Assembly (NCBI GenBank): GCA_043228905.1
Contig: JBHGNT010000008.1
Coordinates: 16,120,001-16,184,000, forward strand
Direction of reading: 5' to 3'
Length of the DNA: 64,000 nt
Origin: Azolla caroliniana
Taxonomy: Eukaryota > Plantae > Polypodiophyta
Below, piece by piece: positions 6,199-39,778 of this stretch (position 1 is its first letter; each line of letters starts with the position of its first letter). Both the position numbers and the translations under genes were made by a program. Below the pieces are notes generated by a model, which was not told where the DNA came from, ran no database searches, and saw only the letters and a program-made list of their open reading frames with translations.

Positions 6199-6430
6199 AT
6201 GATGGATAGAGGCATGGCGAGCTCGCTTCCAACAGAGAAGCTCAACAGAACCAACTACGCGTCTTGGTCATACAAGATGCACCAGTACCTGATCGGGCAC
6301 GGGTACTGGAGTTATGTCGAAGGAGCTAATGGCGTGGGACCCGAATCGACACACAGAGACTTCCCGTCGTGGGAGCAATCGGCGAGCAGGGTATTATACT
6401 GCTTCGCGTCATGTGTGGACGAACAACTAT
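6199..6430 (+). pseudogene. Copia B gag N-terminus
   Basis: MMDRGMASSLPTEKLNRTNYASWSYKMHQYL; continues at 17593. Confidence 0.9.
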
Positions 6431-6479
6431 TGTTGGGATTACGGTCCCTCCGGATGGGATGGTCAGATGTCCGGGAATC

Positions 6480-6625
6480 GGGAATGAAGACCCGGTTCCG
6501 GAGCCGGATGATGAAGACCCCGGCTACGGAGCCGGATGATGAAGACCCCGGCTACGGAGCCGGATGATGAAGACCCGGTTTCGGATCCGGATGATGAAGA
6601 CCCCGGCTACGGAGCCGGATGACGA
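6480..6625 (+). repeat. 27-28-bp CCGG-rich tandem repeats in U3 of F-family LTRs (also near 10410-10635, 15310-15510, 16935-17105)
   Basis: Unit GCCGGATGATGAAGACCCCGGCTACGGA. Confidence 0.9.
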
Positions 6626-9600: not shown

Positions 9601-10333
9601 TTCCGGAACCAGAGCACGTGCTGCTAACCGACGAGGGGGAGCCGGAGAGTTTTGAAGAAGCAAAGCTTGACACCCATAGCCGCAGGTGGTTAAGTGCCAT
9701 GCAGGAGGAGATGGATTCCCTGCATGAGAACCACACATATGAACTTGTGGAGTTGCCGAAAGGAAAGCGGGCACTTCGAAACAAGTGGGTGTTCAAGCTG
9801 AAACCGGGAGATGCCGGAAACCCCCCGAGATACAAAGCCAGGATCGTGGTGAAGGGGTTCCAGCAGAAGAAGGGCGTCGACTTCGACGAGATATTTTCCC
9901 CGGTAGTGAAGATGACCTCCATCCGGACGGTGCTGAGCATAGCGCCAAGCATGGACCTCGAGGTAGAACAGATGGACGTGAAGACGGCATTCCTTCACGG
10001 TGACCTCGAAGAAGAGATCTACATGCAGCAACCGGAAGGATTCGAGAAGAAAGGGAAGGAGCACCTGGTATGCCGGTTGAAGAAGAGCCTTTACGGAATG
10101 AAGCAGGCTCCCCGGCAATGGTACCGGAAGTTCGACTCTTTCATGACCGACGAAGGGTACCACAAAACGCAGTCCAATCACTGCGTGTTTGTGAAGAAGT
10201 TCGAAGGAGGAGACTTTCTAATACTCCTCCTGTACGTGGACGACATGTTGATCGTCGGACGGGACCAGGGCAAGATACGGATGTTGAAGAAAGCGCTTCA
10301 CCGAACCTTCTCAATGAAGGACCTGGGTCCGGC

Positions 10334-13300
10334 TGTTGGGATTTACGGTCCCTCCGGATGGGATGTCCGGAGATGAATGACGGCAAGCCCGGTATCGGTT
10401 ACGGAACCGGAGGATGAAGAGTACCCGGCATGAAGCCGGATGAAGAGTACCCGGCTACGGAGCCGGATGATGTAGACCCCGGCTACGGAGCCGGATGATG
10501 AAGACCCGGCGACGGAGCCGGATGATGAAGACCCGGCTACGGAGCCGGATGACGAAGACCCGGCTACGGAGCCGGATGACGAAGACCCGGCTACGGAACC
10601 GGATGACGAAGACCCCGGCTACGGAGCCGGATGATGTATGTACCTGGAGAGAGATCCGGATGCGGGGACATATTTGTGAATATGTTTGCTAAGGGCCCTT
10701 GTGGCTATATTTGTAAATAGCCTGAAAGTCATATGTGTATAAATATGACTTAGGGCAAACAGTTTTATGTTGTTGCTCATTTTCTGTTTTTCCACTTAGA
10801 GAGAGTGAAGAGAGCAGCCGAGAGAGCGAGAGAGAGAGAGAGAGACGAAGAGGTCGTTGCCTCTGTGTATTACCGCCGCCTGTGGCGAAGACAGTGAGCT
10901 CAAGGTTGTTGCCTTGAAGCTTCACCATTGTACATCTCTGTTCATAGTGATAGTTGGAGTTTGAGGACTCCCGTGGTTTTTTCCCGTATAGGGTTTTCCA
11001 CGTTAATCCCTGTGTTATCGTGTCTTTCTCTGTGTTTCCTATTTTCTGCTGCATTGATTCGAGATTTCTCGGTTGTGGCCGAGTGGTCAAGGTGAATCGG
11101 AGCGTTGATTCGCAACAAACTGGTATCAGAGCGACGGCAGTGCAGAAAATGGAAGGCGGCAGCAGCGGGCAGCCGGGGATGATGGTGCTGAATGCGCAGA
11201 ACTACGCCGACTGGAAGATCAAGATGGAGGATCTTCTGATTGTTCGGGACCTGTACGAACCGATTGACAGGTCGGAAATACCGAAGGGGGTACTTGAGTC
11301 GGAATGGAGGCTTCTGAACCGGAAAGCCGTTGCAACCATTCGGCAATACGTCGACGTGAGCGTTCTACAGCATGTGGCGAACGACACCAACGCATACGAG
11401 ATGTGGCGGAAGCTGTCGGGCCTCTACGAGAGGAAGAATGCGTTGAACCGGACCTCCCTGATGAGGAAGATAGTGAACCTCAAGTACCGGGACGGCGAAA
11501 GTATGGTGGAACACGTAAGCACGTTCATGGGATTCGTGAACCAGCTTGCGGCGATCAAGTTCCCGTTGGAGGATGCAATGCAAGCCATCATCTTGATGTG
11601 TACATTGCCGGAAAGCTGGGAGAACTTGGTGGTGACTCTCAGCACCTCCTGCACAGAAGATAACTTGTCCTTGCAAACGGTAAAGACAAGTATTTTGAAC
11701 GAAGAAGCGCGTCGGAGAGATAAAGAACCGGCCTCCGACCCGAAGGCGCTGCTTACCGAATCGGATCGTGGAAGACAATGGAACCGGAGTCCGCAAAGAC
11801 GGGAGAAGTCGGGGACCCGGTCGCAGTCAAGAGGAAGGCCCACATGCTTCCACTGTGGGAAACCGGGGCACTTCCGAAAGAATTGTCGGCATTACCGAAA
11901 AGACAACGGAGCCGACGACACCGATTCGAAGAAGTCACCGGAGAGAAACGGTGCATACCGGGGAGCCACGGACCGGAGAGGTTCGGATCGGCGAGGGCAG
12001 GACCGGAAAGGAACGACGGCACTCGCGGCAAGTGAGGAAGAAATCATGCTCATTACCGAAGAGAGGGAGCTGAACCTTGCCGGAGAAGAGACGACCTGGG
12101 TGGTCGATTCCGGAGCGTCGTTCCACCTGACCCCGGAGAAGAAATACTTCTCATCCTACACAGCCGGTGAGCATGGCTGTGTCCGGATGGGAAATGAAGG
12201 TACATGCCGGATTGCCGGCATAGGAGACGTGTGGCTGATGACATCAACCGGATGCAAGATGCTGCTGAAGGATGTCCGACATGTTCCGGAGGTTCGATTG
12301 AACCTGATTTCGGCCGGGAGGCTAGACGATGAAGGCTACACGGGTAGCATCCGGAACGGTGTCATGAAGTTCAGCAAAGGGAGCCTGATAGTGGCTCGGG
12401 CCCGGAAGGTCAACACACTGTACCTGATGAATTCCCGGCTATGTCCGGAGGAGTTGAATGTGGCAGCCGACACTGCCGGTGAGCTGTGGCACAAGAGACT
12501 GTGCCACATGAGTGAGAAGGGGATGAAGAGGCTTGCAGAAGACAACCTTATTCCAGTGAAGCATGTGCATCTGGAGAAGTGCACCGATTGCCTGGCCGGT
12601 AAGCAGAACCGAGCCTCCTTCCACTCAAGGCCACCGACGAGACGTAGCGCACCATTGGAGTTGGTGCACACTGATGTGTGTCAGGTAGAAACGAAGTCAC
12701 ATGGCGGAGCCCAGTACTTCGTAACATTCATAGATGATCACAGCCGGAAGCTGTGGACGGCACCGTTGAAGACAAAGGACCAAGTATTGTCCGTCTTCAA
12801 AGAACTCCACGCGAGAGTGGAAAGGGAATCCGGCAAGGAGCTGAAAGCGATACGAGCGGATAACGGAGGGGAATACCGGGGGCAGTTCGAGGAGTACTGT
12901 CGCTCGAAGGGAATCCGGCTCGAGTTTACTGTGCCGAAGACGCCGGAACTGAACGGGCTGGCCGAGAGGATGAACCGGACCATAATGGAGAGGGTCCGGA
13001 GTATGCTGGCGCATGCGAAATTACCCAAGGGGTTTTGGGCTGAGGCAATGTCGACGGCGACATACGTGATAAACAGATCACCCTCAGTACCTTTGGATGG
13101 AGACACGCCGCAGAGAGTGTGGACCGGTAGGGAAGTATCCTACCGGCATCTGAAGGTGTTCAGGTGTCTCGCATATGTGCATGTGGCAAAGGACCGGAGA
13201 GGAAAGCTAGATCCAAAGACCCGGCCATGCATATTCCTCAACTTACGGCAACGACGAGTTCGGCTACCGAGTATGGGACCCGGTCGACAAGAAGATATTC

Positions 13301-15990
13301 AGGAGTCGAGATATCATCTTCATGGAGGACAAGACACTCGCCGACTGGGAGTCGGAGAAGAAGATGAAGAGCTCCAAGTTGACCGGTGAGGATCAACTCT
13401 ACAAGGAGCAGTCCCGACCGGCAAGAGACCGGTTAGCACTCGAGGATCCGGCCGAAGACGGTGAAGAAACAGAACCGGCCGAAGAAGATGAAAATGATAC
13501 CGGAACCGGCCCCGATCCCGAAATGGATTCGGAAGAAGAAGAATCGGAAGAACCGGTTACCGAAGCTCCGGAACGGAGATATCCTCTAAGAGAGAGAAGG
13601 GCCCCCCGGAGATTTCCGGAACCAGAGCACATGCTGCTAACCGATGAGGGGGAGCCGGAGAATTTTGAAGAAGCAGAGCTTGACACACATAGCCGCAGGT
13701 GGCTAAGTGCCATGCAGGAGGAGATGGATTCCCTGCATGAGAACCACACATATGAACTTGTGGAGTTGCCGAAAGGAAAGCGGGCACTTCGAAACAAGTG
13801 GGTGTTCAAGCTGAAACCGGGAGATGCCGGAAACCCCCCGAGATACAAAGCCAGGATCGTGGTGAAGGGGTTCCAGCAGAAGAAGGGTGTGGACTTCGAC
13901 GAGATATTTGCCCCGGTAGTGAAGATGACCTCCATCCGGACGGTGCTGAGCATAGCGGCAAGCATGGACCTCGAGGTAGAACAGATGGACGTGAAGACGG
14001 CATTCCTTCACGGTGACCTCGAAGAAGAGATCTACATGCAGCAACCGGAAGGATTCGAGAAGAAAGGAAAGGAGCACCTGGTATGCCGGTTGAAGAAGAG
14101 CCTTTACGGACTGAAGCAGGCTCCCCGGCAGTGGTACCGGAAGTTCGACTCCTTCATGACCGACGAAGGGTACCACAAAACGCAGTCCGATCACTGCGTG
14201 TTTGTGAAGAAGTTCGAAGGAGGAGACTTTCTAATACTCCTCCTGTACGTGGACGACATGTTGATCGTCGGACGGGACCAGGTCAAGATACGGATGCTGA
14301 AGAAGGCTCTTCACCGAACCTTCTCAATGAAGGACCTGGGTCCGGCGAGGCAAATACTAGGGATGCACATCATCCGGGACCGGAAGAAGAAGCAGTTGTG
14401 GTTGTCACAGGAGAAGTACGTGACAAAGGTGCTTCACCGGTTCAACATGTCGGAAGCAAGACCGGTCGGGTCAACACTCCCGGCAAACTGCAAGCTGTCC
14501 AGCAAGCAAAGCCCCAAGACAAAGGCTGAGAAGGAGGACATGATGAAAGTACCATATGCCTCTGCCGTCGGGAGCTTGATGTACGCGATGGTGTGTACCC
14601 GACCGGACATAGGATATGCAGTCGGAGTGGTGAGCCGGTACATGAGCAATCCCGGCAAAGAGCATTGGAACGCGGTCAAATGGATACTCCGATACCTGAA
14701 GGGCACGGCAAACATGTGCCTCCGATTCGGCTCCGGTAAGCCCGAACTCGATGGATTTACCGATTCGGATATGTCGGCTGATGCAGATACCAGCCGGTCC
14801 ACATCAGGGTATGTGATGACGTATGCAGGGGGAGCTGTTTCATGGCAGTCGAGGCTGCAGAAGACGGTTGCACTGTCAACCACGGAGGCGGAGTACATGG
14901 CGGCTGTTGAAGCCGGCAAGGAAATAATATGGATGAAGGACTTCATTAGAGAGCTCGGTATCCGGCAGGAGGAGTACCGACTCTACTGCGACAGTCAGAG
15001 TGCCATCCACCTTGCGAAGAACGCGGCCTATCACTCCCGGACGAAGCACATCCAGCGAAGATATCACTGGATCCGGGAAAGGATAGAAGACAAGGAGTTC
15101 GTGCTGACGAAGATCCACACGGACGAGAACGGGTCGGATATGCTGACTAAGGTACTTACACCCGACAAGCTGGAAGCATGCCGGAAGAGGATCGGATTGG
15201 AGAGACATCCCATGCCGAAGTGAAGGGGGAGTTTGTTGGGATTTACGGTCCCTCCGGATGGGATGTCCGGAGATGAATGACGGCAAGCCCGGTTGCGGTT
15301 ACGGAACCGGAGGATGAAGAGTACCCGGCATGAAGCCGGATGAAGAGTACCCGGCTACGGAGCCGGATGATGTAGACCCCGGCTACGGAGCCGGATGATG
15401 AAGACCCGGCTACGGAGCCGGATGACGAAGACCCGGCTACGGAGCCGGATGACGAAGACCCGGCTACGGAACCGGATGACGAAGACCCCGGCTACGGAGC
15501 CGGATGATGTATGTACCCGGAGAGAGATCCGGATGCGGGGACATATTTGTGAATATGTTTGCTAAGGGCCCTTGTGGCTATATTTGTAAATAGCCTGAAA
15601 GTCATATGTGTATAAATATGACTTAGGGCAAACAGTTTTATGTTGTTGCTCATTTTCTGTTTTTCCACTTAGAGAGAGTGAAGAGAGCAGCCGAGAGAGC
15701 GAGAGAGAGAGAGAGAGACGAAGAGGTCGTTGCCTCTGTGTATTACCGCCGCCTGTGGCGAAGACAGTGAGCTCAAGGTTGTTGCCTTGAAGCTTCACCA
15801 TTGTACATCTCTGTTCATAGTGATAGTTGGAGTTTGAGGACTCCCGTGGTTTTTTCCCGTATAGGGTTTTCCACGTTAATCCCTGTGTTATCGTGTCTTT
15901 CTCTGTGTTTCCTATTTTCTGCTGCATTGATTCGAGATTTCTCGGTTGTGGCCGAGTGGTCAAGGTGAATCGGAGCGTTGATTCGCAACA
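10334..15990 (+). mobile_element. Ty1/copia element F2 (same family as F1), inserted in F1 RT
   Basis: LTRs at 10334-11117 and 15234-15990. TSD CCGGC. PBS at 11121-11132. PPT GAAGGGGGAG. Confidence 0.95.
11149..15223 (+). pseudogene. F2 gag-pol, intact except for one frameshift near 13240
   Basis: Overlapping ORFs of 811 and 633 aa; TTCCTCAACTTACGGC versus TTCCTCGGTTACGGC in F1. Confidence 0.9.
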
Positions 15991-17587
15991 CCGGCGAGGC
16001 AAATACTAGGGATGCACATCATCCGGGACCGGAAGAAGAAGCAGTTGTGGCTGTCACAGGAGAAGTACGTGACAAAGGTGCTTCACCGGTTCAACATGTC
16101 GGAAGCAAGACCGGTCGGGTCAACCCTCCCGGCAAACTGCAAGTTGTCCAGCAAGCAAAGCCCCAAGACAAAGGCTGAGAAGGAGGACATGATGAAAGTA
16201 CCATATGCCTCTGCCGTCGGAAGCTTGATGTACGCAATGGTGTGTACAAGACCGGACATAGGATATGCAGTCGGAGTGGTGAGCCGGTACATGAGCAATC
16301 CCGGCAAAGAGCACTGGAACGCGGCCAAATGGATACTCCGATACCTGAAGGGCACGGCAAACGTGTGCCTCCGATTCGGCTCCGGTAAGCCCGAACTCGA
16401 CGGCTTTACCGATTCGGATATGTCGGCTGATGCAGATACCAGCCGGTCCACATCAGGGTATGTGATGACATATGCAGGGGGAGCTGTTTCGTGGCAGTCG
16501 AGGCTGCAGAAGACGGTTGCGTTGTCAACCACGGAGGCGGAGTACATGGCGGTTGTTGAAGCCGGCAAGGAAATAATATGGATGAAGGACTTCATTAGAG
16601 AGCTCGGTATCCGGCAGGAGGAGTATCGACTCTACTGCGACAGTCAGAGTGCCATCCACCTTGCGAAGAATGCGGCCTACCACTCCCGGACGAAGCACAT
16701 CCAGCGAAGATATCACTGGATCCGGGAAAGGATAGAAGACCAGGAGTTCGTGCTGACGAAGATCCACACGGACGAGAACGGGTCAGATATGTTGACCAAA
16801 GTGCTCACACCCGACAAGCTGGAAGCGTGCCGGAAGAGGGTCGGACTGGAAAGACATCCCATGCCGAAGTGAAGGGGGAGTTTGTTGGGATTACGGTCCC
16901 TCCGGATGGGATGGTCAGATGTCCGGGAATCGGGAATGAAGACCCAGTTCCGGAGCCGGATGATGAAGACCCCGGCTACGGAGCCGGATAATGAAGACCC
17001 CGGCTACGGAGCCGGATGATGAAGACCCGGCTTCGGATCCGGATGATGAAGACCCCGGCTACGGAGCCGGATGATGAAGACCCCGGCTACGGAGCCGGAT
17101 GACGAATGTACCCGGAGAGAGATCCGGATGCGGGGACATATTTGTGAATATGTTTGCCAAGAGCCCTCTAGGCTATATTTGTAAATAGCCCGAAAGTCAT
17201 ATATGTATAAATATGACTTAGGGCAAACAGTTTTGGTTGTTGTTGCTCATTTTTCTGTTTTCCACTTAGAGGGAGCGAAGTGAGAGCAGCCGAGAGAGAG
17301 AGAGTGAGAGAGGGAAAGGAAGAGGTCGACGCCTCTGTGTAATACCGCCGCCTGTGGCGAGGACAGCGAGCTCAAGGTCGTCGCCTTGCAGCTCGCCATT
17401 GTACATTCCCTACGTATAGTGATAGTTGGAGCCTTGCACTCCCGTGGTTTTTCCCGTCTAGGGTTTTCCACGCTAAACCCTGTGCATTCGAGTCTTTCTC
17501 TGTGTCTTCGATTTACTGCTGCATTGATCCGTGTTTCCTCGGTTGTGGCCGAGAGGTGAAGGTTTTTGAAAGCGTCAATTTCTAACA

Positions 17588-20500
17588 ACTATTGAGCTAT
17601 GTTCGGGATGCAAAGACGCCGAAGGGTGCGTGGGAAAATCTGGAGAAGATTTTCGCCTCGAGCACCACAACCAGGAAGCTTCAGCTCCGACAGGAGTTGA
17701 GCAACCCACGACAACGCGACTTGTCGGTGGCGGACTATACCTCGAAGATCAAGGATATCTGCGACCCCCTCGCCTCCATAGAGGTGAACATCGAGGAGAG
17801 CGAGATGGTCTAGATCTGTCTCAGAGGTTTGGCGTCGAAGTTTGGAGCGTTCCGAACGACTGTGTGTATCCGGGAGAATACGCCGTCCTTTTTCGACTTA
17901 CAGTCAATGCTCCTGGTAGAGGAGAACCACGTGGGTGCGTCTACAAGCACACACACCGACAGCAGAATGCTGTACACAGAGGGAGATAGGCCCCGTGGAC
18001 ATGGAGGACGAGGCGAGTCGGCGCGCAATGGAGGCGGCCGACGAGATCAAGGAAGAAGGCACCGAAGTGATGCTGACAGCAACTCCGAACCCTCCGGAAA
18101 CAGGGGGAGTCGAAGCGATGAGAATCGGCAAGGGAAGACCATCGCGGAGTGCTGGTACTGTGGCAAGAAAGGCCATAGGGAAAGTGAGTGCTGGAAGAAG
18201 CGCGCCGATTCGGAGAGAACCGGTTCCGGAAACGACTCCGGACATATCGACAAGGGAAATCGGCAGCGATCGCACTACGCCGAAGACTCCGGGAGAGCCG
18301 GAGAAGGGTCTACCTTCGTGACGAGACACGAAGCAAACTCAATGAAACGGACCACCCCGAGATCGGATGAGGTGTGGTACGTAGACTCTGGCGTGTCAAA
18401 CCACATGACGAGCCATAAGGAGCGGTTCTCGTACCTTGAAAAACCGATACAACCTAGAGTAGTCGCAACTGGAGACGACACTCCGCATCCGATCGCGAAT
18501 GTCGGAGAAGTTCCCCTTAGCCATGTCGGGCAGAAAGGGAAACTCATTAACGTGCTGCACGTTCCGACAATCACGAAGAACTTGGTCTCGATCGGACAGA
18601 TCGTCGACCAAGGGATGGAGGTTCGGTTTACACACCTCGGGTGCTTCATTGAGGAAGAAGGCCGTGTGATTGCGCAAGGGCGCAGAGACGAGAGGATGTT
18701 CATCCTCGATTCCACTGACGGCAGCACCGCAATGTTCGCGAAGGGACAAAAATCCGAGTCGGACATCGACTTGTGGCACAAATGGATAGGCCATGTCAAC
18801 TACCAGCGGCTTCAAGACTTGCAATCGAAACAAGTGGTGTTCGGATTGCCCAAATTTAGTGGCCGAAAGGCACAAATTTGTGAAACCGACATCCTTTCCC
18901 CAACGAGCGAAACTGGAGCCGGAACAAGCTCGACCTTATACACTCCGATGTATGGGGGCCGGCACAAAACGTTAGTCTTGGCGGGAGCCGATATTTCGTC
19001 TCCTTCATCGACGACCACACGCGGCACACGTGGATCTACCTCATTAAGAGGAAGAGCGAAGTCTTCGACTGTTTCCGGGATCTCAAAGGGTTCGTGGAAA
19101 CGGAAACGGGATGAAAGATCAAGTGCCTGCGGTCGAATGGCGGGAAAGAGTACTTTTTTGGTCAATTCAACGGTTATCTACAACAAATGGGAATTCGGCG
19201 CGAATTCAGTTGTAGATACACGCCGGAGCAGAATGGCGTGGCCGAGAGGAAGAATCGGTCAGTTGTGGAAGCGGCACGGGCAATGCTGGAGGAGAAGAGC
19301 TTGCCCAAGTTCTACTGGGCCGAGGCGGTAAGGACCGCAGTATACATCCAGAACCGGATCGGAGACAAAGTGTCGGCGCACGAGCTATATTTCAGAACGA
19401 AGCTGAACTTGCGACACTTGAGGGTGTTCGGTAGCATTGCGTATGTGCATGTACCGAAGGAGAAAAGGAGGAAGCTGGACGCAAAGGCCGAGAAATGCAT
19501 CTTGGTCGGTTACTCGGACGAGCAGAAGGGTTATAAGTGCTATAACCCTCGCACCAAACAAGCGCGTGTTAGCCGCGACGTTGTGTTTGATGAGTCCGCG
19601 TCCTGGTACCAGCCCCCGACTCCGAACCCCGACTCCAGTCCGAGTTCTGACGATGAGGTCAGCGAGGCCGAGATGCCTCCGGATGAGCCCGAAATCGAGA
19701 CCCGCGAAGAGAGTCCGATTTCACTCCGTTTAACTGGACCGATTGGACGACTGAGTCGGTACGATCAGTCCGATGAAGAGCCGACGAGTAGTGGAGACTC
19801 GGCCGTGCATTCCCCGCGTAGGAAGCCGAGGAAACGGCTTATGCGCAAAGAGAAAGGGAAGAAGAAGGTGTCGGATTCCGACACGGATAGGAACGAGTCA
19901 GACCGACGCGAGTCCGACTCCGAGGGAACCGGTGACGGGTCTTTAAAGGTGAAGTCCACGTCGACCGAGAAGGCCTCGACATCGGCTAATGTGAGATTAC
20001 GCCGATCTACCCGCCAGAAGAATCCTGTTTTGCGGTTCGGATACAACGAGTACATGGCGCAGCACAATGCATACATGACCCGTATAGCGGAGGTGCGTGA
20101 GCCGGAGAGCTATGCAGAAGCGGCGAAGGACGCTTATTGGCGCGCCGCGATGGAGGAAGAGATGCATGCATTGGCGGAAAACGAGACCTGGGATCTGGTT
20201 GATGCACCGAAGGGTGTGAAGCCGATCGGATGTAAGTGGGTGTACAAGGTCAAGTACAACACCGATGGCTCGGTCAACCGATACAAGGCCCGGTTAGTGG
20301 CAAAAGGTTACGCGCAGAAACAGGGCATGGACTATGATGAGACGTTTGCGTCGGTCGCGAAAATGACGACCGTCCGTGTTTTGCTCGCAGTAGCTGCGGT
20401 GAGAAGGGGTGGCACCTACATCAGATGGATGTAAAGAATGCGTTCCTACAAGGTGACCTTGAGGAACAGGTGTACATGGTACAGCCCCCCGAATTTCACT

Positions 20501-20790: not shown

Positions 20791-23538
20791 TGTTGGGAGA
20801 CAGGTCCCTCCGGATGGGAAGAGACAGGTCCCTCCGGAAAGAGAAACCCTAAACCGGATGAGGAGTACCCGGCTACGGAGAGCCGGATGGTGCAGAACCG
20901 GTATGAACCGGGTGAGGAGTACCCGGCTTCGGAGAGCCGGATGATGCAGACCCGGTGAAGACCGGATGAGGAGTACCCGGCTACGGAGAACCGGATGAAG
21001 AGACATATTCGTAAATATGTTTTTTCTGATAGTCCATCGAGGCTAATTGGTAAATAGCCGAAAAGTCATATTAGTATAAATATGACTTAGGGGAAACTAT
21101 GAGTTGTAGTAGTTGTCCTTTTTCCTTGTTGGTGCAAGAAGAAGAGAGAGTACGTAACGTTGTACAGAGAGAGAGAGAGAGAAAGAGGTAGCTGCCTCTG
21201 TTGTAACCACCGCCTGTGGCGAAGATCGTGAGTCCGAGGTCGTTGCCTCCGTGAACTCACTGTTTTGTACATTCTTACATAGTGACAGTTTGCAGCCTGT
21301 CGGCTGCCGTGGTTTTTCCCCTAGTTTGGGGTTTTCCACGTAAACCTCCTGTGTATTTTCTTCTTCTTTGTGTCGCGTCTTATTTCCCGTTTTCTGTGTA
21401 TCATTCTAAGCTCGGTTGTGGCCGAGCGTTGCGCATAAGGAACGACCAGTTCCCGTCAAGTGGTATCAGAGCAACATGACACAGAAAATGGACGAATCGT
21501 TTGGCGGCATGTTCAAGCTCACCGGCTCCAACTATTCCGTGTGGAAGTTGAAGATGAGGGACATGCTCGTGGTTAGAGACCTCTGGCTGCCGGTTCAGTT
21601 CGGGGACAAGAGACCGGACAAAATCGACGCCGCGATATGGGAGGTGATGCACATGAAGACAACGGCGTACATACGGTGCTTCATCGACATGAGCCTATAC
21701 AACAACTTCAATGAAGAGAGCAAGGCTCATGAGCTCTGGGAGAAGATTGACATAATGTTTCAAAATAAAAATGTTGTTAATCAGGTTTCGGTATTCCGGA
21801 AGCTAGTAAGACTCTGGTACCAAGATGGCTCCAACATGGCGGAGCATATGAATGCCTTCCAGGGGCTGATACACTAGGCAACGTCATTGGAAGTACCTCT
21901 TGCCGATGAGGTACTAGCGCTACTCCTGCTCGGTTCCCTCCCTGATAGCTGGGAGACGTTGGTTGTCACTTTGGGCAACGCCGGGCCGGAAGGAAAGCGG
22001 TTATCCCTAGCAAGAGTAAAGTCGAGCTTGCTAGATGAGGAGTGCTAGATGAGGAGGCGCGTCGGAAAGACAAAGATACGAGCTCCGACTCCAAAGCGCT
22101 TCTTACCGAATCGGAACGCGGAAGACATAGAAACCGTAGTCCCTAGAACCGGGAGAAGTCGGGGACACGGTCAAAGTCAAGGGGGAGGCCTACTTGCTTC
22201 TATTGCGGCAAGCCGGGACACTTCCAGAAGAACTATCGGCATTTCCGTAAAGACAAGGAAACCGACGGTACCGACTCGAAGCAAACCCCAGACCGGAACG
22301 GTAAAGACCGGAGGGGGCCGGACCGGAAGGGAATGACGGCAATCGCGGCAAGTGAAGAAGATTTGATGCTCATCACCGAGGAGAGTGAGATAAACCTTGC
22401 CGGTGACGAGATGACCTGGGTGGTAAACTCCGGAGCATCGTTCCACCTTACCCCGGACCAGAAATGCTTCTCATCCTACTCAGCCGGTGACCACGGTTGT
22501 GTCCGGATGGGGAATGAAGGTACATGCCGAATTGTCGGCATAGGAGACGTGTGGCTGTCAACACCAACCGGATGCAAGTTGCTGCTGAAGGATGTCCAAC
22601 ACGTTCCGGAGGTTCGTCTGAACCTGATATCAGCCGGTCGGCTAGATGATGAAGGCTACACGGGTAGCATCCGGGACGGTGTCATGAAGTTCAGCAAAGG
22701 GAGCTTGATTGTGGCTCGGGCCCGGAAGGTCAACACACTGTACCTGATGAATGCCCGGTTATGCCCGGAAGAACTGAACGTGGCATCCGACACTGTCGAT
22801 GAGCTGTGGCACAAGAGGCTGTGTCATATGAGCGAGAAGGGGATGAAGAGGCTTGCAGACGACAACCTCATTCCACTGAAGAATGTGCACTTAGAGAAGT
22901 GCACTGATTGTCTGGCCGGTAAGGAGAACCGGACCTCCTTCCGACCAAGGCCACCGACGAGACGTAATGCACCACTGGAGTTGGTGCATACGGATGTGTG
23001 TCAAGTAGAAACGAAGTCACATGCCGGAGCGCAGTACTTCGTGACGTTCATAGATGACCACAGCAGGAAGCTGTGGGCCACACCGTTGAAGACGAAGGAT
23101 CAGGTGTTATCCGTCTTCAAAGAGCTCCACGCGAGAGTGGAAAGAGAAACCAGCCGGAAGCTGAAGGCGGTTCGAGCAGATAACGAAGGAGAGTACTGGG
23201 GGCAGTTCGAGGAGTACTGCCGCTCGAAGGGAATCCGGCTCGAATTTACCGTTGTCGCGAAGATTCGCGCGTGCGTGTGCTACTCGAGCGACCACCGGGG
23301 TCTTGGACTGGGGAGGACGTTCGCGGAATTATCGACGCTAGATGACGATCAATGTAAGATTAGACGGAATTTGTTCACTTGAGAAGAAGAAAAATTGTAC
23401 ACTTGAGAAGTAGAAAAATATGAAGAAGATAAAGACAAATTTTATATTGATGATAATGGTGTTGGTGATATCACATATTGAGCCCCCCTTACACAAGCCC
23501 AACTAGAGGCTTTTATAGGTCTTTCCATGCTCGTGACA

Positions 23539-23630
23539 TGCACAAAACCATGGGCTAAAACCATGGTTTTGTGCACACGGTTTTGCTTATGTCATGCACA
23601 AACCATGGTTTTAGCCCATGGTTTTGTGCA
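23539..23630. repeat. Inverted repeat with about 36-bp arms, made of AAACCATGGTTT palindromes, in the I LTR
   Basis: TGCACAAAACCATGGGCTAAAACCATGGTTTTGTGCA ... TGCACAAACCATGGTTTTAGCCCATGGTTTTGTGCA. Confidence 0.9.
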
Positions 23631-23699
23631 CATGGTTTTCTATGGTTGTTTCGTCTATAATTTGTATATGAAAAGGAAATACATAAAATCTACACTATA

Positions 23700-23770
23700 T
23701 GATAGTTGTCCTAGTGGTAAGGCAATTATCTTGTATCTTAGAGGTGCAAGGTTCAAACCTTGCTTGCACC
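23700..23770 (+). promoter_or_regulatory. tRNA-like Pol III cassette, antisense in U3 of the I LTR (second copy about 26571-26641)
   Basis: TGTCCTAGTGGTAAGG...GCAAGGTTCAAACCTTGC, with an intact T-arm-like hairpin. Confidence 0.65.
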
Positions 23771-23853
23771 CCTCTGTATGAACTCAAGTGCCACTAGGCT
23801 AGGTTTATTTGCTAAGTGCATGTGCAATGTTGCACATCCTTGGTTTATTCGTC

Positions 23854-26079
23854 TCACTCGGTTTCACACCGTAGCCGAAAATCGTCACGACATCCACCCC
23901 CACCAAACCCGCACATCCTCCGGTATGTGCCGAGAAAGGTGAAGAGGTGAGATCTTTGGCAACGGTGATCAACCGAGTTCCTCTGCACGCTCGTCGACTT
24001 CGTCTTCCACTTCGAGTATGCGCAATCTTTCCAACCGAACCACCGTAGCCACCCGATCCACCATATCCGGCGCTCACACCTTCTTCCCCGATCGGTTGTA
24101 GTAGATCTACCGAACGATGCCGTCGATACGACCGCTCTTCCTTCATCCACCGCGCGTCTCCTTCGATTGGACTCCTGACCACTCCTCACGCTCACCGTCT
24201 TCAACTGGGTATTGTAGATCGTTCGTGTCGATCTCCGATTAGGCCGGGTTTGCCCTTGTCCGGATCGGTCTCCACCGATCGCTTCTTGGCTTGGTTGGCC
24301 TTCGTCTGCATTCACATTTCGCCGAGTCGGGCTCGACCGATTGATTCTGGCTGGATCGGCCCCCTTCTGGATCGGAATCGTCCGATCGATTTTCGCCGAA
24401 TCAGGTTTCGGCCGGGTCGGCCCCGGTCGATCGGCTCCCATGTGGATCTTCCTTCGTTCGGGTCGGAATCCCGACCGGATCGTCTTCCGGTTCAACCGGT
24501 TCTCGACTCTTCCTTCCTTCCTGCATGCAACCTCTCCATCGAACTCAACCGCAGCTTCATCCTTGGCCTCCACGTCGGCCATATCCTTCCCTCTGTGTAT
24601 GCTCGCCTCGAGCCATATTGTCTCCTCTTCGCCACCTCCTTTATCTTCGGTCTTATGTCGACACACGGTCTCGACTGCCGAAGTCTCCGGAACCAGTGTG
24701 AAGGAATCCCTTCGTTCATTTACATTTACCTTGTCTTCTTCATCGCCCTTCCGGTCGTCCTCTTTTTTGTCCACACATTCTGTCTCTCCGGTCTCACGTT
24801 GGTGCACGTGCACAACCGCCGAAGTCTCTAGAATAGGTGTGGGGATATCCTTTCTTCCTCGATCTTCTTCCTCTTTGTGTTGGGCCTTTGTCTTCCCGTC
24901 ACCACCTTCCGTCTCTCCGGTCTCACGTTGGCACATGGGTGCAACCGCCGAAGTCTCTGGAACAATCGTGGAGAAAGTCTTGACATGGCTATCCGTTGTC
25001 GACTCGTCCATAGCCACCTCCGACTCGATGTCGTTTGTCATGGCTACCTCCTCAATCTCTTCAGACTCAAACACTTTTTCTCCCTCGATCATGCAAGCTT
25101 TTCTCATGCTTGCGCCGTCATCACCCGATGTTTCGTACACAATGCGTGTTCCAAAACATTTATCCTCCCTCGAAGTGGCGTTCGCCGTCCTCGAGTCATC
25201 GGCCTCCTCCTTCGCCGTCGTTTCTTTGTAAGACAAGAAGGTGACTTCTTTCACACCTTCTCTCTCGGTACCGTCATACCGAACCAGAGCCTTTGTATCG
25301 GCCACTTCATTAACCCGCATTTGTTGGGAGGTCTCTTCTTCCTCGATCACCATTCGCCTCGGTTTTGTCTCCCTTCTAAGCTTCATTTCTTTTGTTGGTG
25401 GTGCGTTGTTGCATCTCGTCCCTCTTCGATCGTCCCTCATGGGCCGTCTTGTTGTCGTCGATATTCTCACTTGCCCCTTATCGTGTAGTCGGCATACACT
25501 TTCCACTTTGCCCCAATCCTCGATGAGGCCATTTGCACCATCATCTTCTTCGAGTTTGAGGCCGATCGCCATCCTTTCCATTCGATCGATTGACTTCACG
25601 AACATAAGGACCTTATCGACCCCCACCAATCTTTGTTCCCGCTCCGACAATTGAGAAAAATGATGCTCGAAGTCTACGAATGCTTGTGTCGCACCTTGGT
25701 GGGTCTTCGCTGATGTCACCCATTGGTCGAAGTTGTGTCGATCTTGTCCCTTCAGTCTCTCATAGCCATATTCCTCCAATAGAGCCTTCTCGAAAGTCGC
25801 CCACGAATCATGAGCTTCTAGAAGCTTTGTTACATCTTTGAAGATCGGTTGAGACACCACCCGACAAAAGTACTCTAGCCTCATAGCTTTGTCCACACCT
25901 CTTGAATCCATCTCCGCATTGTAGACTTTTAGGAAACTTTGGACTTCGGCACCGTTGAAATAGCTCATTCGTTCGACTACCTTGTCGACGGCTTGTTGGG
26001 CTTCATTTCTTCTTTTCCCTTCTATCAGAAACTCCATCATCCTTTTTGACATTGCCTCCATGAGATATTCGACATCCAT
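23854..26079 (-). CDS. 741-aa ORF: Gag capsid-like N-terminus plus acidic/charged repetitive tail; no PR, RT, RH or INT
   Basis: N-terminus (FNGAEVQSFLKVYNAEM...DKVLMFVKSID) aligns by eye with D Gag (FNGKDVSRYLQDYKAEM...DKVIMFLRAV). Repeats of the form PETSAV..QRETGETE. Confidence 0.8.
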   Translation of the reverse strand: MDVEYLMEAMSKRMMEFLIEGKRRNEAQQAVDKVVERMSYFNGAEVQSFLKVYNAEMDSRGVDKAMRLEYFCRVVSQPIFKDVTKLLEAHDSWATFEKALLEEYGYERLKGQDRHNFDQWVTSAKTHQGATQAFVDFEHHFSQLSEREQRLVGVDKVLMFVKSIDRMERMAIGLKLEEDDGANGLIEDWGKVESVCRLHDKGQVRISTTTRRPMRDDRRGTRCNNAPPTKEMKLRRETKPRRMVIEEEETSQQMRVNEVADTKALVRYDGTEREGVKEVTFLSYKETTAKEEADDSRTANATSREDKCFGTRIVYETSGDDGASMRKACMIEGEKVFESEEIEEVAMTNDIESEVAMDESTTDSHVKTFSTIVPETSAVAPMCQRETGETEGGDGKTKAQHKEEEDRGRKDIPTPILETSAVVHVHQRETGETECVDKKEDDRKGDEEDKVNVNERRDSFTLVPETSAVETVCRHKTEDKGGGEEETIWLEASIHRGKDMADVEAKDEAAVEFDGEVACRKEGRVENRLNRKTIRSGFRPERRKIHMGADRPGPTRPKPDSAKIDRTIPIQKGADPARINRSSPTRRNVNADEGQPSQEAIGGDRSGQGQTRPNRRSTRTIYNTQLKTVSVRSGQESNRRRRAVDEGRAVVSTASFGRSTTTDRGRRCERRIWWIGWLRWFGWKDCAYSKWKTKSTSVQRNSVDHRCQRSHLFTFLGTYRRMCGFGGGGCRDDFRLRCETE

Positions 26080-26100: not shown

Positions 26101-26118
26101 TTCACGTCGGGTTCACCA
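26101..26118 (-). promoter_or_regulatory. PBS complementary to the 3' end of plant cytosolic tRNA-Trp (element I)
   Basis: Plus strand TTCACGTCGGGTTCACCA matches the tRNA-Trp 3' end as I recall it; 5 nt from the LTR. Confidence 0.8.
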
Positions 26119-29100
26119 AATGATGTCGCGAAGATTCGCGCGTGCGTGTGCTACTCGAGCGACCACCGGGGTCTTGGACTGGGGAGGACGTTCGCGGAAT
26201 TATCGACGCTAGATGACGATCAATGTAAGATTAGACGGAATTTGTTCACTTGAGAAGAAGAAAAATTGTACACTTGAGAAGTAGAAAAATATGAAGAAGA
26301 TAAAGACAAATTTTATATTGATGATAATGGTGTTGGTGATATCACATATTGAGCCCCCCTTACACAAGCCCAACTAGAGGCTTTTATAGGTCTTTCCATG
26401 CTCGTGACATGCACAAAACCATGGGCTAAAACCATGGTTTTGTGCACACGGTTTTGCTTATGTCATGCACAAACCATGGTTTTAGCCCATGGTTTTGTGC
26501 ACATGGTTTTCTATGGTTGTTTCGTCTATAATTTGTATATGAAAAGGAAATACATAAAATCTACACTATATGATAGTTGTCCTAGTGGTAAGGCAATTAT
26601 CTTGTATCTTAGAGGTGCAAGGTTCAAACCTTGCTTGCACCCCTCTGTATGAACTCAAGTGCCACTAGGCTAGGTTTATTTGCTAAGTGCATGTGCAATG
26701 TTGCACATCCTTGGTTTATTCGTCTCACTCGGTTTCACACCGTAGCCGAAAATCGTCACGACACCGTGCCGAAGCACCGGAACTAAACGGGCTGACCGAG
26801 AGGATGAACCGGACCATAATGGAGAGGGTCCGGAGTATGCTAGCGCATGCAAAACTACCCAAGAAGTTTTGGGCTGAGGCATTGTCGACGGCGACATACG
26901 TGATAAACATATCACCCTCAGTACCCTTGGACGGAGACGCGCCACAGAGAGTATGGACCGGTAAGGAAGTGTCCTACCGGCATCTGAAGGTGTTCGGGTG
27001 TCTCGCGTACGTGCATGTAGCAAAGGACCGGAGAGGAAAGTTAGATTCAAAGACCCGGCCATGCATATTCCTGGGTTACGGTGACGATGAGATCGGCTAC
27101 CGAGTGTGGGACCCGGTCGACAAGAAGCTATTCCGGAGTCGAGATATTATCTTCATGGAGGACAAGACGCTCGCCGACTGGGAGTCGGAGAAGAAGATAA
27201 TGAACTCCGAGTCGACCGGTAAGGATCGACTCTACGATGAGCAGACCCAACCGGCGAGAGACCGGTTAGCACTCGAAGAACCAGCCAGATACGGTGAGGA
27301 TACCGAACCGGCAGAAGAAGAAGTAGAGGAAGCCGAGACCGGAACCGGCCTAGACCCTGAATCGGATTCGGATGAAGAGCAAATGGAGGAGCCGGCTACC
27401 GAAGCCCAAAGACGGAGATATCCTCTCAGAGAGAGAAGGCCCCCCCGGAGATTTCCGGATGCAGAGCATGTTCTGCTGACCAATGAAGGGGAGCCGGAAA
27501 GCTTCAAAGAAGCGAAGGATGACACCCACAACCGAAAATGGTTAAGTGCCATGCAGGACGAGATGGATTCCCTGCATGAGAACCATACGTACGAATTGGT
27601 GGAGTTGCCGAAAGGAAAGCGGGCACTCCGGAACAAGTGGGTGTACAAGTTGAAACCGGGAGATGCCGGAAACCCCCCGAGATACAAAGCCAAGATCGTG
27701 GTGAAGGGGTTCCAGCAGAAGAAGGGAATGGACTTCGACGAGATATTTGCCCCGGTAGTAAAGATGACCTCCATCCGGACGGTGTTGAGTATAGCGGCAA
27801 GCATGGACCTTGAGGTAGAGCAGTTGGACGTGAAGACGACATTCCTTCACGGTGACCTCGAAGAGGAGATCTACATGCAGCAACCGGAAGGATTCGTGGA
27901 GAAAGGGAAGGAGCACCTGGTATGCCGGTTGAAGAAGAGCCTGTACGGACTGAAGCAGGCTCCCCGTCAATGGTACCGGAAGTTCGACTCCTTCATGACC
28001 GATCAAGGGTACCACAAGACGCAGGCCGATCACTGCGTGTTTGTGAAGAAGTTTGAAGGAGGCGACTTCCTGATACTCCTTCTGTACGTGGATGACATGT
28101 TGATCATCGGACGTGACCAAGTCAAAATACGGATGCTGAAGAAGGTTCTCAACCGGACCTTCTCAATGAAAGACTTGGGTCCGGCAAGACAGATGTTGGG
28201 GATGCACATCATCCGGAACCGGTCAGCGAAGCAATTATGGCTGTCACAGGAGAAGTATGTGACAAAGGTGCTTCACTGGTTCAACATGTCAGAAGCGAAA
28301 CCGGTTGGATCGACACTTCCGGCAAACTGCAGGCTATCCGGCAAGCAAAGCCCGAAGACGAAAGCAAAGAAGGCGGATATGATGAAGATCCCATATGCCT
28401 CTGCCGTCGGGAGCTTGATGTAAGCAATGGTTTGTACTCGACCGGATATAGGATACGCAGTCGGAGTGGTGAGCCCGTTCATGAGTAATCCCGACAAGGA
28501 GCACTGGAACGCGGTCAAATGGATACTCCGGTATTTGAAGGGCACTTCAAATATGTGTCTCCGATTCGGCTCCGGAAAACCTCAACTGGACGGTTTCACC
28601 GATTCGGACATGTCGGCTGATGTGGATACCAGCCGGTCTACATCCGGGTATGTGATGACATATGCAGGGGGAGCTGTTTCGTGGCAGTCGAGGTTGCAGA
28701 AGACGGTTGCATTGTCAACCACGGAGGCGGAGTACATGGCAGCGGTGGAGGCCGGCAAGGAAATATTATGGATGAAGGACTTCATCGGAGAGCTCGGTAT
28801 CCGGCAAGAGGAATACCGACTCTATTGCGACAATCAAAGTGCCATCCACCTTGCTAAGAATGCGGCCTACCATTCCCGGACGAAGCATATCCAACGGAGG
28901 TATCACTGGATTCGGGAAAGAGTAGATGACCAGGAGTTTGCACTGACGAAGATTCACACGGCCGAGAACGGATCAGATATGTTGACCAAAGTGCTGACAC
29001 CCGACAAGCTGGATGAATGTCGGAAGAGAATCGGGTTGGTAAGACACCCCATGCCGGAGTGAAGGGGGAGTTTGTTGGGAGACAGGTCCCTCCGGATGGG

Positions 29101-33006: not shown

Positions 33007-33089
33007 TGTCGTAGTGTAGGTTGCACACTATGTGGAAATTATATTTTTGTCCCTCTGGATAGAAAATGGAGTGCTCGGTGAGAAACGGA

Positions 33090-33228
33090 AGAAAACGGCA
33101 TACCGGCAAGGAGGAAAACGGCATACCGGCAAGGAGGAAAACGGCATACCGGCAGGGAGGAAAACCGGCATACCGGCAAGGAGGAAAACGGCATACCGGC
33201 AAGGAAGAAAACGGCATACCGGCAAGGA
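33090..33228 (+). repeat. 22-bp tandem repeat, about 6 copies, in U3 of the D LTR (second copy about 38986-39124)
   Basis: Unit GAAAACGGCATACCGGCAAGGA. Confidence 0.9.
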
Positions 33229-33278
33229 AGAGCCGGATAAAGAGACATAAATGTAAAAAGAAAGGAAATACTCACTAC

Positions 33279-33350
33279 TGCGCAGGGCATGATTCGAACT
33301 CTGCACCTTCACGTTGGCAAACCCCAACCTTACCATTACATTAACTTATC
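33279..33350 (-). promoter_or_regulatory. tRNA-like Pol III cassette, antisense in U3 of the D LTR (second copy 39175-39246)
   Basis: Minus strand TAATGTAATGGTAAGG...TTGCCAA...GAGTTCGAATC, with a T5 run about 20 nt downstream. Confidence 0.65.
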
Positions 33351-33921
33351 TTAAGTGTTTTAAATATAGATTTAATACGTATAAGACCTTTTATTTATGC
33401 ATACCTTTATTAAAAGGTAAATCGTGTATTTCTTTTAATATATGAAAAAGAAAAACGCGAGACACTAAAAATAACTCATGCACATCTAGCGTGCATGAGC
33501 CCTATACTTAGGAAAAAAAAAAAAGCAACACATGCACATTTAGTGTGCATGAACATATGAGAAAAAGCATGTAGCTACGCTTAGTCTCTCCCATCACTAT
33601 ATAAGGATGGGGAGCACATTGTAGTGGTTGTTGATTTTTTTGGATTAAGAATTAATCAATACAAAAATTATTCGTGGGATTCACGATTTATACATCTACT
33701 TCTCTCTTAACACCCTAAGTACCAATTAATATAGTATACTCGTGTGATTCACGAGTTTCTTATCTTTCTCTTTGCTATTTACTCATAATTAATCTCTATC
33801 TCACGAACTTCTTTCTCCTAGTCCAAGACCTCTGTGGTTCCCACCCGACTCACGCAACGATCCGGAGCCGAAAGGCACGACACAAGTTGGTGAACCCGAC
33901 GTGAAAACGGGTGGCAAGGAG

Positions 33922-35313
33922 ATGGAGGCTCAACAAGCTAACAATATGATGGCGATGTTCGAACGGATGCTTCAAGAACAACGCACGATGTCGGAGATTT
34001 CGGCATCAGTAGAGCGGCTCGTGCAACGGAACGGGCAATTTAATGGTAAGGATGTGTCGCGATATTTGCAGGACTACAAGGCGGAGATGCTCCGGTGCCG
34101 GGCTTCGGAAGGACTGCAAGTGACATCCTTTAACCGGGTGGCGACCGACGGGCTTCAAGGGATTATCCACGGGTTGCAACAACAAAATCCGACGTGGGAA
34201 GCATTCGAAGAGGCGTTAAAGACCACGTTTGCCATCGAGGACTTCTCCAAGGCAACGCGGAGGGGATTCGAGGATTGGGTGGAAACGTCAGGTAAGGGGC
34301 TGAAGGTCCTCGAAGTGTTTTCGGCATTCGAAAGTCGGTTCGGGAGGCTGTCCGCGAGAGATCAAACTATTCTTGCACCGGACAAAGTCATCATGTTTTT
34401 GCGAGCTGTGGGCGTCCGGGAAGCTACGGGATGGGAGTGCCCTGTCGACAAGAATAGCATATACGCCCTGTGTCAATTACATGAGGTGTATGTGGACGAG
34501 AAACGACGGCGCATGGAGGATGCGGCCGGACCATCGAAGATACCGGAAAGCTGGAACTCCGGAGGTAAGGGAAAAGAAAAGGCGACTCCGGCATTCAAGC
34601 TCGCCTCGGACATAGAACAACAAACCGACTTGAAAAGAGTGTTCGAGGAAAGAATCTTGGATAGCCGGGTAGATTTTTCGCTGCGGGAACTACTCGGAAT
34701 AGCGAAGAAGGAGTTTCACGATCTTCTCGTGGATCTCGTAAAAAGGAAGAGACAAAGTACGGAGGAAAATGCTCCAAGGGTGAATGCAAATACCGTTTCA
34801 ATGAACGACACCGAAGTGGAAGGCGAAATTCCGAACTCCCACTATACAAGGCCACACTGGGCACGTGCGACTACGGAGACTCCGGTCCGAATCGGCAACA
34901 TCAAAGAACCCGTGCTAGCATTGATTGATCACGGATCGGAGATCAACTTGATGTCCAAGGAGTTCTACCGAAAGGGGAAGTGGCCTATAAACACCAACCA
35001 TGGATGGAAGATTCGGGCAGCCACGAAAACGACAGAAGACCTATTTGCGGCTTGTCCGGATGTGACGGTAAAGATCGGGGATGTCGAAATTGACCAAAAT
35101 TTCTTTGTGCAGGATGAGGTTTCACATTCTGTCATCCTCGGCCAACCCTTTATCACGGCTTCACGGATGGAGACGAAGGTGCTCGATAGTGGTGCGGCTT
35201 TTGCGCGAATTCGGAGCCAAAACGGAGGGAAATCCGTCCAATTCCTAACGGTGCCGGCAAATCACGAAAGGAACAAGAGGGAACTCTTGTCCCAAGTGAG
35301 AATGGATTTTTAA
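33922..35313 (+). CDS. Element D Gag-protease ORF
   Basis: Capsid-like N-terminus; protease ALIDHGSEINLM...VILGQPF; no CCHC knuckle visible. Confidence 0.85.
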   Translation: MEAQQANNMMAMFERMLQEQRTMSEISASVERLVQRNGQFNGKDVSRYLQDYKAEMLRCRASEGLQVTSFNRVATDGLQGIIHGLQQQNPTWEAFEEALKTTFAIEDFSKATRRGFEDWVETSGKGLKVLEVFSAFESRFGRLSARDQTILAPDKVIMFLRAVGVREATGWECPVDKNSIYALCQLHEVYVDEKRRRMEDAAGPSKIPESWNSGGKGKEKATPAFKLASDIEQQTDLKRVFEERILDSRVDFSLRELLGIAKKEFHDLLVDLVKRKRQSTEENAPRVNANTVSMNDTEVEGEIPNSHYTRPHWARATTETPVRIGNIKEPVLALIDHGSEINLMSKEFYRKGKWPINTNHGWKIRAATKTTEDLFAACPDVTVKIGDVEIDQNFFVQDEVSHSVILGQPFITASRMETKVLDSGAAFARIRSQNGGKSVQFLTVPANHERNKRELLSQVRMDF

Positions 35314-35367
35314 AGCGGACTGTTGCGGAGTGGGGAAGTGATAGTCCGAGAAGCCCTGATACCCCAC
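35304..35367 (+). promoter_or_regulatory. -1 ribosomal frameshift signal: G_GAT_TTT plus H-type pseudoknot
   Basis: Stem 1 CGGACTGTT (35316-24) / GATAGTCCG (35340-48); stem 2 GTGGGG (35330-35) / CCCCAC (35362-67). Confidence 0.75.
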
Positions 35368-38915: not shown

Positions 38916-39778
38916 GTTGCACACTATGTGGAAATTATATTTTTGTCCCTCTGGATAGAAAATGGAGTGCTCGGTGAGAAACGGAAGAAAACGGCATACC
39001 GGCAAGGAGGAAAACGGCATACCGGCAAGGAGGAAAACGGCATACCGGCAGGGAGGAAAACCGGCATACCGGCAAGGAGGAAAACGGCATACCGGCAAGG
39101 AAGAAAACGGCATACCGGCAAGGAAGAGCCGGATAAAGAGACATAAATGTAAAAAGAAAGGAAATACTCACTACTGCGCAGGGCATGATTCGAACTCTGC
39201 ACCTTCACGTTGGCAAACCCCAACCTTACCATTACATTAACTTATCTTAAGTGTTTTAAATATAGATTTAATACGTATAAGACCTTTTATTTATGCATAC
39301 CTTTATTAAAAGGTAAATCGTGTATTTCTTTTAATATATGAAAAAGAAAAACGCGAGACACTAAAAATAACTCATGCACATCTAGCGTGCATGAGCCCTA
39401 TACTTAGGAAAAAAAAAAAAGCAACACATGCACATTTAGTGTGCATGAACATATGAGAAAAAGCATGTAGCTACGCTTAGTCTCTCCCATCACTATATAA
39501 GGATGGGGAGCACATTGTAGTGGTTGTTGATTTTTTTGGATTAAGAATTAATCAATACAAAAATTATTCGTGGGATTCACGATTTATACATCTACTTCTC
39601 TCTTAACACCCTAAGTACCAATTAATATAGTATACTCGTGTGATTCACGAGTTTCTTATCTTTCTCTTTGCTATTTACTCATAATTAATCTCTATCTCAC
39701 GAACTTCTTTCTCCTAGTCCAAGACCTCTGTGGTTCCCACCCGACTCACGCAACGATCCGGAGCCGAAAGGCACGACA

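Follow-up and report, generated by a model that had tools for sequence, protein, structure and literature searches.

In two LTR retrotransposons, hereafter elements I and D, we detected a tRNA-derived cassette in the U3 region that reads antisense to its element and whose motif is real and common to four groups of LTR sequences. Both elements lie in the window, the 64-kb stretch of DNA analysed here, in which plant LTR retrotransposons are nested in one another. We conclude that the cassette is probably under purifying selection. Our preferred explanation, held tentatively and placed a little short of an even chance, is that a decayed copy of a tRNA gene has been kept as a candidate TFIIIC/Pol III-binding unit, which would hold the chromatin of the adjacent Pol II promoter open. 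Pol III cassettes in LTRs have been described before, in very small elements without coding capacity, which they are believed to drive, and in foamy viruses, where they yield miRNAs. Because the cassette found here points away from the element it cannot make genomic RNA; reversed as it is, in plant elements with coding capacity, it cannot drive the element and must have another role or none.

From their structure, we read I and D as Phygy-type Ty3/gypsy elements. A single 17-nt PBS, putatively of the tRNA-Trp type, is common to I, D and their relatives. Both have 4-bp TSDs of the form NCGN (CCGT in I, ACGC in D), and in D Pfam shows the domain order PR-RT-RH-INT, with neither a chromodomain nor aRH nor an extra ORF. 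The named homologues of D pol among its best 120 matches are Riccia proteins. These features resemble those of Phygy of Physcomitrella, a non-chromovirus Ty3/gypsy lineage with bryophyte relatives that is defined by 4-bp NCGN TSDs and tRNA-Trp as the dominant PBS and lacks a chromodomain and an extra ORF (Neumann 2019, PMC6317226; here and below, published work is cited from the parts of its text that were available), whereas the 6772 bp of D fall below the 7656-9968 bp listed for Phygy (PMC6317226). Element D is autonomous, with open gag-protease and RT-RH-INT frames, and is inserted in the gag-like frame of another element, while I is inserted in a copia integrase. Element I is gag-only and measures 3511 bp. 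The first 200 residues of its ORF are gag-like (27% identity to D gag over 194 aa, E 3e-21), and Pfam detected 0 families in the 741 aa. Judged by its identical LTRs and the open frame, I is a recently moved gag-only Phygy derivative. Beyond the gag-like part, its ORF has a long acidic, repetitive tail and terminates within the 3' LTR. The features of both elements are listed in Table 1.

Table 1. Features of elements I and D, with positions in the window.
Feature	Position	Strand	Remarks
Element I, 3' LTR	23253-23892	-	640 bp, TG...CA; 100% identical to 26124-26763
Element I, 5' LTR	26124-26763	-	PBS next to LTR
Element I, TSD CCGT, 4 bp	23249-23252 (+) and 26764-26767	+	Inside copia integrase region
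Element I, PBS	26102-26118	-	Identical in D
Element I, PPT (purine-rich tract)	23893-23910	-	Read from sequence
Element I, TATA-like box of LTR	23511-23517	-	About 190 nt from A box; putative Pol II promoter
Element I, 741-aa ORF	23854-26079	-	N-terminus gag-like, pol domains absent, non-autonomous
Element I, tRNA-derived cassette, U3 of 3' LTR	23700-23773	+	Antisense to element
Element I, second cassette copy, 5' LTR	26571-26644	+	
Element I, A-box region, tRNA positions 8-19	23707-23717	+	Rfam tRNA alignment; A14, T16, G19 invariant in 9/9 copies
Element I, anticodon-loop remnant	23730-23736	+	Y32, T33, A37 kept; stem lost
Element I, non-tRNA hairpin enclosing B box	23743-23770	+	Arms 23743-23750 and 23763-23770
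Element I, B box, positions 52-62	23750-23760	+	G53, T55, A58, A59 invariant in 9/9 copies
Element D, 5' LTR	33007-33882	+	876 bp; identical to 38903-39778; 4-bp TSD ACGC
Element D, 3' LTR	38903-39778	+	LTR pair identical
Element D, frames	33793-38915	+	gag-protease 33793-35313; pol RT-RH-INT 35190-38915 (Pfam)
Element D, cassette, 5' LTR	33275-33350	-	Antisense; T5 run 31 nt past B box
Element D, cassette, 3' LTR	39171-39246	-	Antisense

In the U3 of I and D, the cassette lies upstream of the TATA box at a distance of 190-255 nt. The preliminary description had read A- and B-box strings with 19-nt spacers in it, and these are present as written in both LTRs of each element (I, + strand, 23712-23760, repeated at 26583-26631; D, - strand, 33338-33288, repeated at 39234-39184). 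The 34-nt GG-to-TTC distance was likewise found in both, running from G19 to T54 (23717 to 23752 in I, 33333 to 33298 in D), and so was the antisense placement, with I on the - and its cassette on the + strand and the reverse in D. The statement that neither the spacers nor most of the surrounding U3 can be aligned is borne out for the flanks, since blastn between the I and D LTRs gave no alignment outside the cassette but a 22-nt U5 stretch; the spacers, with 6/19 identical bases, align without gaps via intermediate families and are therefore homologous. When the I and D LTRs are compared in full, the best 53-nt stretch is the in-register cassette. By itself, the pair is not above chance, with 30/53 identical bases and 35/100 block shuffles as high, and the sharing asserted between I and D becomes significant only with the relatives (E 6e-4). 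The Rfam tRNA model scored 13.8 bits on the I cassette (gathering 29, E 2.3) and did not list the D cassette, and ARAGORN predicted 0 tRNA genes over the window. A peak of contig depth at the I B box (4/4 runs) and a low depth over the D cassette (X20) were left unused, as contig depth cannot rank parts.

Relatives were fetched from metagenome contigs by their PBS, blind to the cassette, which yielded at least 121 loci. Long flanks were present in 80 of these, and the remaining 41, with 300-nt flanks, were left out of the cassette test. An LTR end with at least 450 nt upstream was found in 51 loci, and 45 LTR sides extended at least 700 nt upstream of the PBS. Before counting, L022 (on the contig of L021), L070 (doubtful LTR end) and L078 (out of register) were left out. 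The first profile found the cassette in 6 of the 45 LTR sides (L008, L077, L081, L042, L054 and L017), and in the other 39 it was absent or doubtful. A further copy outside this first profile was found in the 3' LTR of L018 (E 1.8e-7), an autonomous element with an RT piece 81% identical to D, which puts it at the same distance from D as two liverwort proteins, P0022 and P0038. With I and D, these seven relatives give nine copies in four LTR-sequence groups, all of them antisense and with the A box 134-261 nt upstream of a TATA-like box. The distance from A to B box, start to start as in a type-2 promoter, is 43 nt in 8/9 copies and 44 nt in L018. When scored with an untrained textbook consensus for the A and B boxes of type-2 Pol III promoters, the antisense strands of L042, L054, L081, I and L008 exceeded 20/20 shuffles, and D stayed within its shuffles (3/20 as high).

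Similarity between the groups is mostly confined to the cassette, and the flanks are mostly unalignable; I and L081, for example, are 80% identical over 84 nt, a likeness limited to the cassette. Profiles built with one group left out regained I, L008, L081, L042, L054 and L018 (E 1e-12 to 4e-8) and L077 (E 0.031). Element D was regained without D and L017 at E 6e-4 (about 58 kb searched), and because this profile was built without its group, the D cassette is homologous to that of I. L017 was not regained by the profile without D and was retained among the nine copies. The two units of L083 (a and b), antisense and with the same spacing, were not regained when left out; they were excluded from the column analysis of the nine copies and included in the alignment behind the tests of the cloverleaf and of an extended D-arm hairpin. 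These units form a tandem antisense tRNA-like pair (L083:626-723 and 768-865), possibly a separate capture. Sense-strand tRNA-like A/B or B-box units, possibly also captured separately, occur at L078:1524-1575, L057:1594-1619 and in L045, with a weak profile match on the sense strand of L078 (E 0.005-0.013).

Across the nine copies, 13 of the 54 columns are invariant (tRNA positions 14, 16, 19, 21, 33, 37, 45, 46, 50, 53, 55, 58 and 59), and mutation bias in methylated DNA may be part of the cause for the invariant A and T. Identity between groups is highest in positions 44-51 (0.784), followed by the boxes (0.655), positions 22-43 (0.519) and the flanks (0.317). The conservation profile proposed as a check, with peaks expected at the A and B boxes, was thus reproduced in part: the boxes exceed the flanks (p 1e-6) and are not clearly higher than the spacer (p 0.067), the p values here and below being optimistic because the nine copies are related and their columns non-independent, and the best-kept block, positions 44-51, is not a TFIIIC box. 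T33 and A37 are the sole invariants among the 22 columns of positions 22-43, a pattern noticed post hoc to which L018 later conformed. Both are universal anticodon-loop bases and not promoter bases.

Variation within the I family was obtained from I-like contigs of four runs aligned on the I LTR, with a threshold of at least 10%. Variants occur at 2/21 box versus 9/19 spacer positions (p 0.012), both box variants falling on degenerate consensus positions (R15 and Y60), and no indels of at least 10% were detected inside the I cassette in these contigs. In the flanks, 16/206 positions vary. At this short range the boxes are hence no better kept than the flanking U3 (p 0.68), an outcome that the preliminary description had itself named as speaking against its reading. 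Loose contig ends on the I LTR come from families further removed, in which a stretch resembling the A box sits behind another spacer.

What is kept is not tRNA function, as had been claimed from I and D. In the cloverleaf 50% of the cells are paired, a value reached by 83/500 shuffles, with pairing of 32% in the acceptor, 53% in the D and 52% in the anticodon stem; the canonical T stem is no better than shuffles (104/500 as high), and the anticodon is not the same among the copies. As the cloverleaf is gone and the anticodon varies, tRNA function is excluded. ARAGORN found no tRNA gene at any cassette in 60 loci. An extended D-arm hairpin was rejected, with 56% of its pairs formed.

A different product is considered next. 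On this reading, the cassette would be a mini-gene for Pol III that is retained because of what it makes, a short antisense tRNA-like RNA with a hairpin at its 3' end, which would act as a small-RNA source, a self-limiting signal or a decoy. We regard this, the main rival, as unlikely. It would explain a non-tRNA helix of eight pairs around the B box that is 82% paired, above all slid controls and with 3-13/500 shuffles as high, and that covaries, 4/8 pairs having changed on both sides, counts that are biased since the hairpin was first read from I. In the I-like contigs both arms are free of variants (0/9 and 0/11) while 3/5 of positions 23758-23762 vary. An RNA product would also account for the anticodon-loop bases T33 and A37 as the only invariants of their region, and for a run of at least four T that begins 13-32 nt after position 61 in 6/9 copies. 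The production of miRNAs by Pol III units in simian foamy virus (SFV) LTRs provides a precedent (PMC3993851). Against such a product stands the lack of a T4 in three copies, for 236 and 630 nt in I, for 119 nt in L008 and for 212 nt in L042. Folding is strong in 5/9 copies (z -2.1 to -4.5) but weak (z above -1) in D, L054 and L017, the hairpin folds on either strand (in I, -17.0 sense and -14.3 antisense), and the anticodon and D stems are lost. The preferred reading as a chromatin unit meets a difficulty of its own here, because a barrier acting as DNA only would not need the kept positions 33, 37 and 44-51 or the hairpin. The idea that selection acts on a promoter rather than on an RNA finds support in A14, G19, G53, T55 and A58, invariant in 9/9 copies, but non-promoter positions and the hairpin are kept too, and the statement that only boxes and spacing are kept is too narrow. 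Since the hairpin, T33, A37 and positions 44-51 are all retained, the data do not separate promoter from RNA, and the distinction had been drawn too sharply.

The distribution of the cassette bears on whether it does anything at all. It is lacking in L009, L019, L059 and L080, which are closely related to D and I, and it is decayed in L077 at G18, in L054 at C56 and in L017 at T54; being present in only 6/45 LTR sides, lacking in close relatives and decayed in some copies, it is dispensable. In a gag tree with 27 rows (cassette present in 4, absent from 17, the other 6 too short to tell) it needs three changes and is unclustered, 129/500 shuffles being as low; support in the RT tree is 33-70 at most nodes. 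This patchy, unclustered occurrence points either to an old feature that was often lost or to a module of U3 that families exchanged. In several pairs from one and the same group, the homologous stretch starts at the B-box end of the cassette, which fits module swapping. L024 and L052 have RT pieces 90% identical to D, with gag and LTR ends from another clade, and are mosaic Phygy elements. Viral contigs gave six PBS matches, none with gag, and no pol relative. No RNA data set was listed as containing D, which does not bear on its expression.

Such a pattern could also mark a neutral relic: the head of a SINE, or a tRNA pseudogene, that entered a U3 a single time and was spread by LTR recombination, its likeness among groups reflecting recent shared descent. 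This we find quite improbable. It would accommodate, besides the patchiness, the decayed copies and the spacer, which likewise exceeds the flanks, and tRNA-like pieces are reported in 'not a few' Repbase LTRs (PMC10886601). Neutral descent does not explain, however, why variants are found in the spacer but avoid the universal box bases and the two arms of the hairpin, or why the cassette has one orientation and one position window across four groups. Nor was any copy outside an LTR detected at E < 0.08 in the 364 kb of window and loci, an LTR-centred sample.

A role unrelated to Pol III, as a palindromic enhancer site for Pol II or as a hairpin of the sense RNA or cDNA in reverse transcription, is very unlikely. 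Positions 44-51 as the best-kept block, the folding of the inverted repeat on the sense strand and a similar motif that recurs in L081, L054 and L083 at a place closer to the TATA box are consistent with it, but it leaves unexplained the A box found 43-44 nt upstream in 9/9 copies as well as G19, T55 and A58. Targeting of tRNA genes, or use of the cassette as a landing pad, is unsupported, with one true tRNA gene in 60 loci and no insertions before the four cassettes of the window.

In our preferred explanation, TFIIIC would recognise the cassette and TFIIIB would sit on its TATA-facing side. In the 5' LTR the unit has the flank on one side and the Pol II promoter on the other. In copies followed by a T run, we predict an antisense RNA about 90-110 nt long with the hairpin at its end. 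The U3 module would have been passed between LTR families by recombination, or would go back to one old gain followed by many losses. When an element lands in silenced repeats, the cassette might act in cis as a barrier or keep chromatin open, and this is the least supported step. Insertion of Phygy at NCGN and its nesting in other elements make a location in methylated repeats likely; nesting of Phygy in Tcn1 has been reported (PMC6911290). Chromatin boundaries at which TFIIIC sites or tRNA-derived B2 SINEs are active have been described in yeasts and mouse (PMC8136502; PMC3395662, PMC2040200), and no plant barrier of this kind was found in the literature searched. A broader reading, which we consider rather doubtful as a whole, is that autonomous plant retrotransposons carry and trade in U3 an antisense Pol III module, made from a host tRNA gene and with a remodelled hairpin, as a portable chromatin barrier or a small-RNA gene, which would counter silencing and keep the CpG-targeting Phygy active in heterochromatin. 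Should TFIIIC bind the cassette, and should the cassette protect the LTR promoter, the transposon would carry a barrier of its own and offer a direct test of tRNA-type chromatin insulation in plants, for which families with and without the cassette in one lineage are natural controls.

Among known systems, the Helenus/TRIMp3 elements are similar in having a tRNA-derived sequence in each LTR with conserved A and B boxes, for which a working tRNA is unlikely, as it is for the cassette of I and D; their use of Pol III was deduced from conservation only (Kojima 2024, PMC10886601). Helenus elements are non-coding TRIMs of 311-1263 bp, whereas I encodes a long ORF and D is autonomous, and the Helenus promoter is thought to transcribe the element, whereas the cassette is antisense in every copy here; the available Helenus text does not state the orientation of the tRNA-derived sequence. 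The sole plant family of Helenus described there is from Selaginella and has 5-bp TSDs, in contrast to the 4-bp TSDs of I and D, and autonomous partners of Helenus are expected to use Pol II and to lack such an LTR sequence (PMC10886601). Related cases may be listed in the supplements of that study. The Cassandra TRIM is likewise a plant LTR element with a Pol III promoter originating from a small-RNA gene in its LTR, but according to the same source this promoter is of type 1 and derived from 5S, transcribes the element from LTR to LTR, belongs to a non-autonomous element and has been demonstrated experimentally (PMC10886601).

Simian foamy viruses are comparable in that a retroelement that is autonomous and driven by Pol II carries A/B-box Pol III units, hairpins and T-run terminators in its LTR (Kincaid 2014, PMC3993851). 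Their units are transcribed, yield miRNAs and are not described as tRNA-derived in the text available (PMC3993851), whereas in the present cassette the eight-pair hairpin is short and I has no terminator. Boundaries formed by tRNA genes, ETC/TFIIIC sites and B2 SINEs share with it the combination of a B-box unit and a neighbouring Pol II promoter at the edge of a chromatin domain, but they are host loci or free SINEs of yeasts and mouse, and none is described in the accessible text as an LTR-borne module for the use of the element itself (PMC8136502; PMC3395662, PMC2040200). Mouse B2 reduced expression in its neighbourhood (same papers). As far as its available text goes, the description of Phygy does not mention an LTR cassette (PMC6317226), and that of expressed moss gypsy families is likewise without mention of such a unit (PMC7466625). 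We found no description of a cassette in Phygy in the literature searched, with most subscription papers and the Repbase notes outside its coverage.

Several further features of the LTRs and the window were recorded. A true tRNA-Arg(CCG) gene lies at L058:1150-1224, about 200 nt outside a Phygy LTR, and L038 has a decayed tRNA-like copy about 1030-1080 nt before the PBS. The U3 of I contains, between cassette and TATA box, a near-perfect inverted repeat of 86 nt (23542-23627 and 26413-26498) that scores as a miRNA-like hairpin below the Rfam cut-offs, with related palindromes in L008, L077 and L040; as this repeat is upstream of the 5' end of the cassette, the cassette would not transcribe it. 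Most Phygy loci carry a U5 motif 62-68 nt before the PBS (in the window at 23289-23310 on the - and 33820-33840 on the + strand), which may be a packaging or primer-activation signal; its string, B-box-like in some families and mostly GGTCCAAGACC, was rejected as a B box and looks like a small hairpin. In the U3 of D, a 24-25-nt unit is repeated in tandem about six times (33085-33225), directly outside the 3' end of the cassette. Elsewhere in the window, head-to-tail copia units with common LTRs containing 27-28-nt tandem repeats occupy 6430-17600, at spacings of about 4.0, 4.9 and 1.6 kb, and a long AT-rich low-complexity tract with CATA/TA-type repeats and strong strand skew extends from 56100 to 61500.
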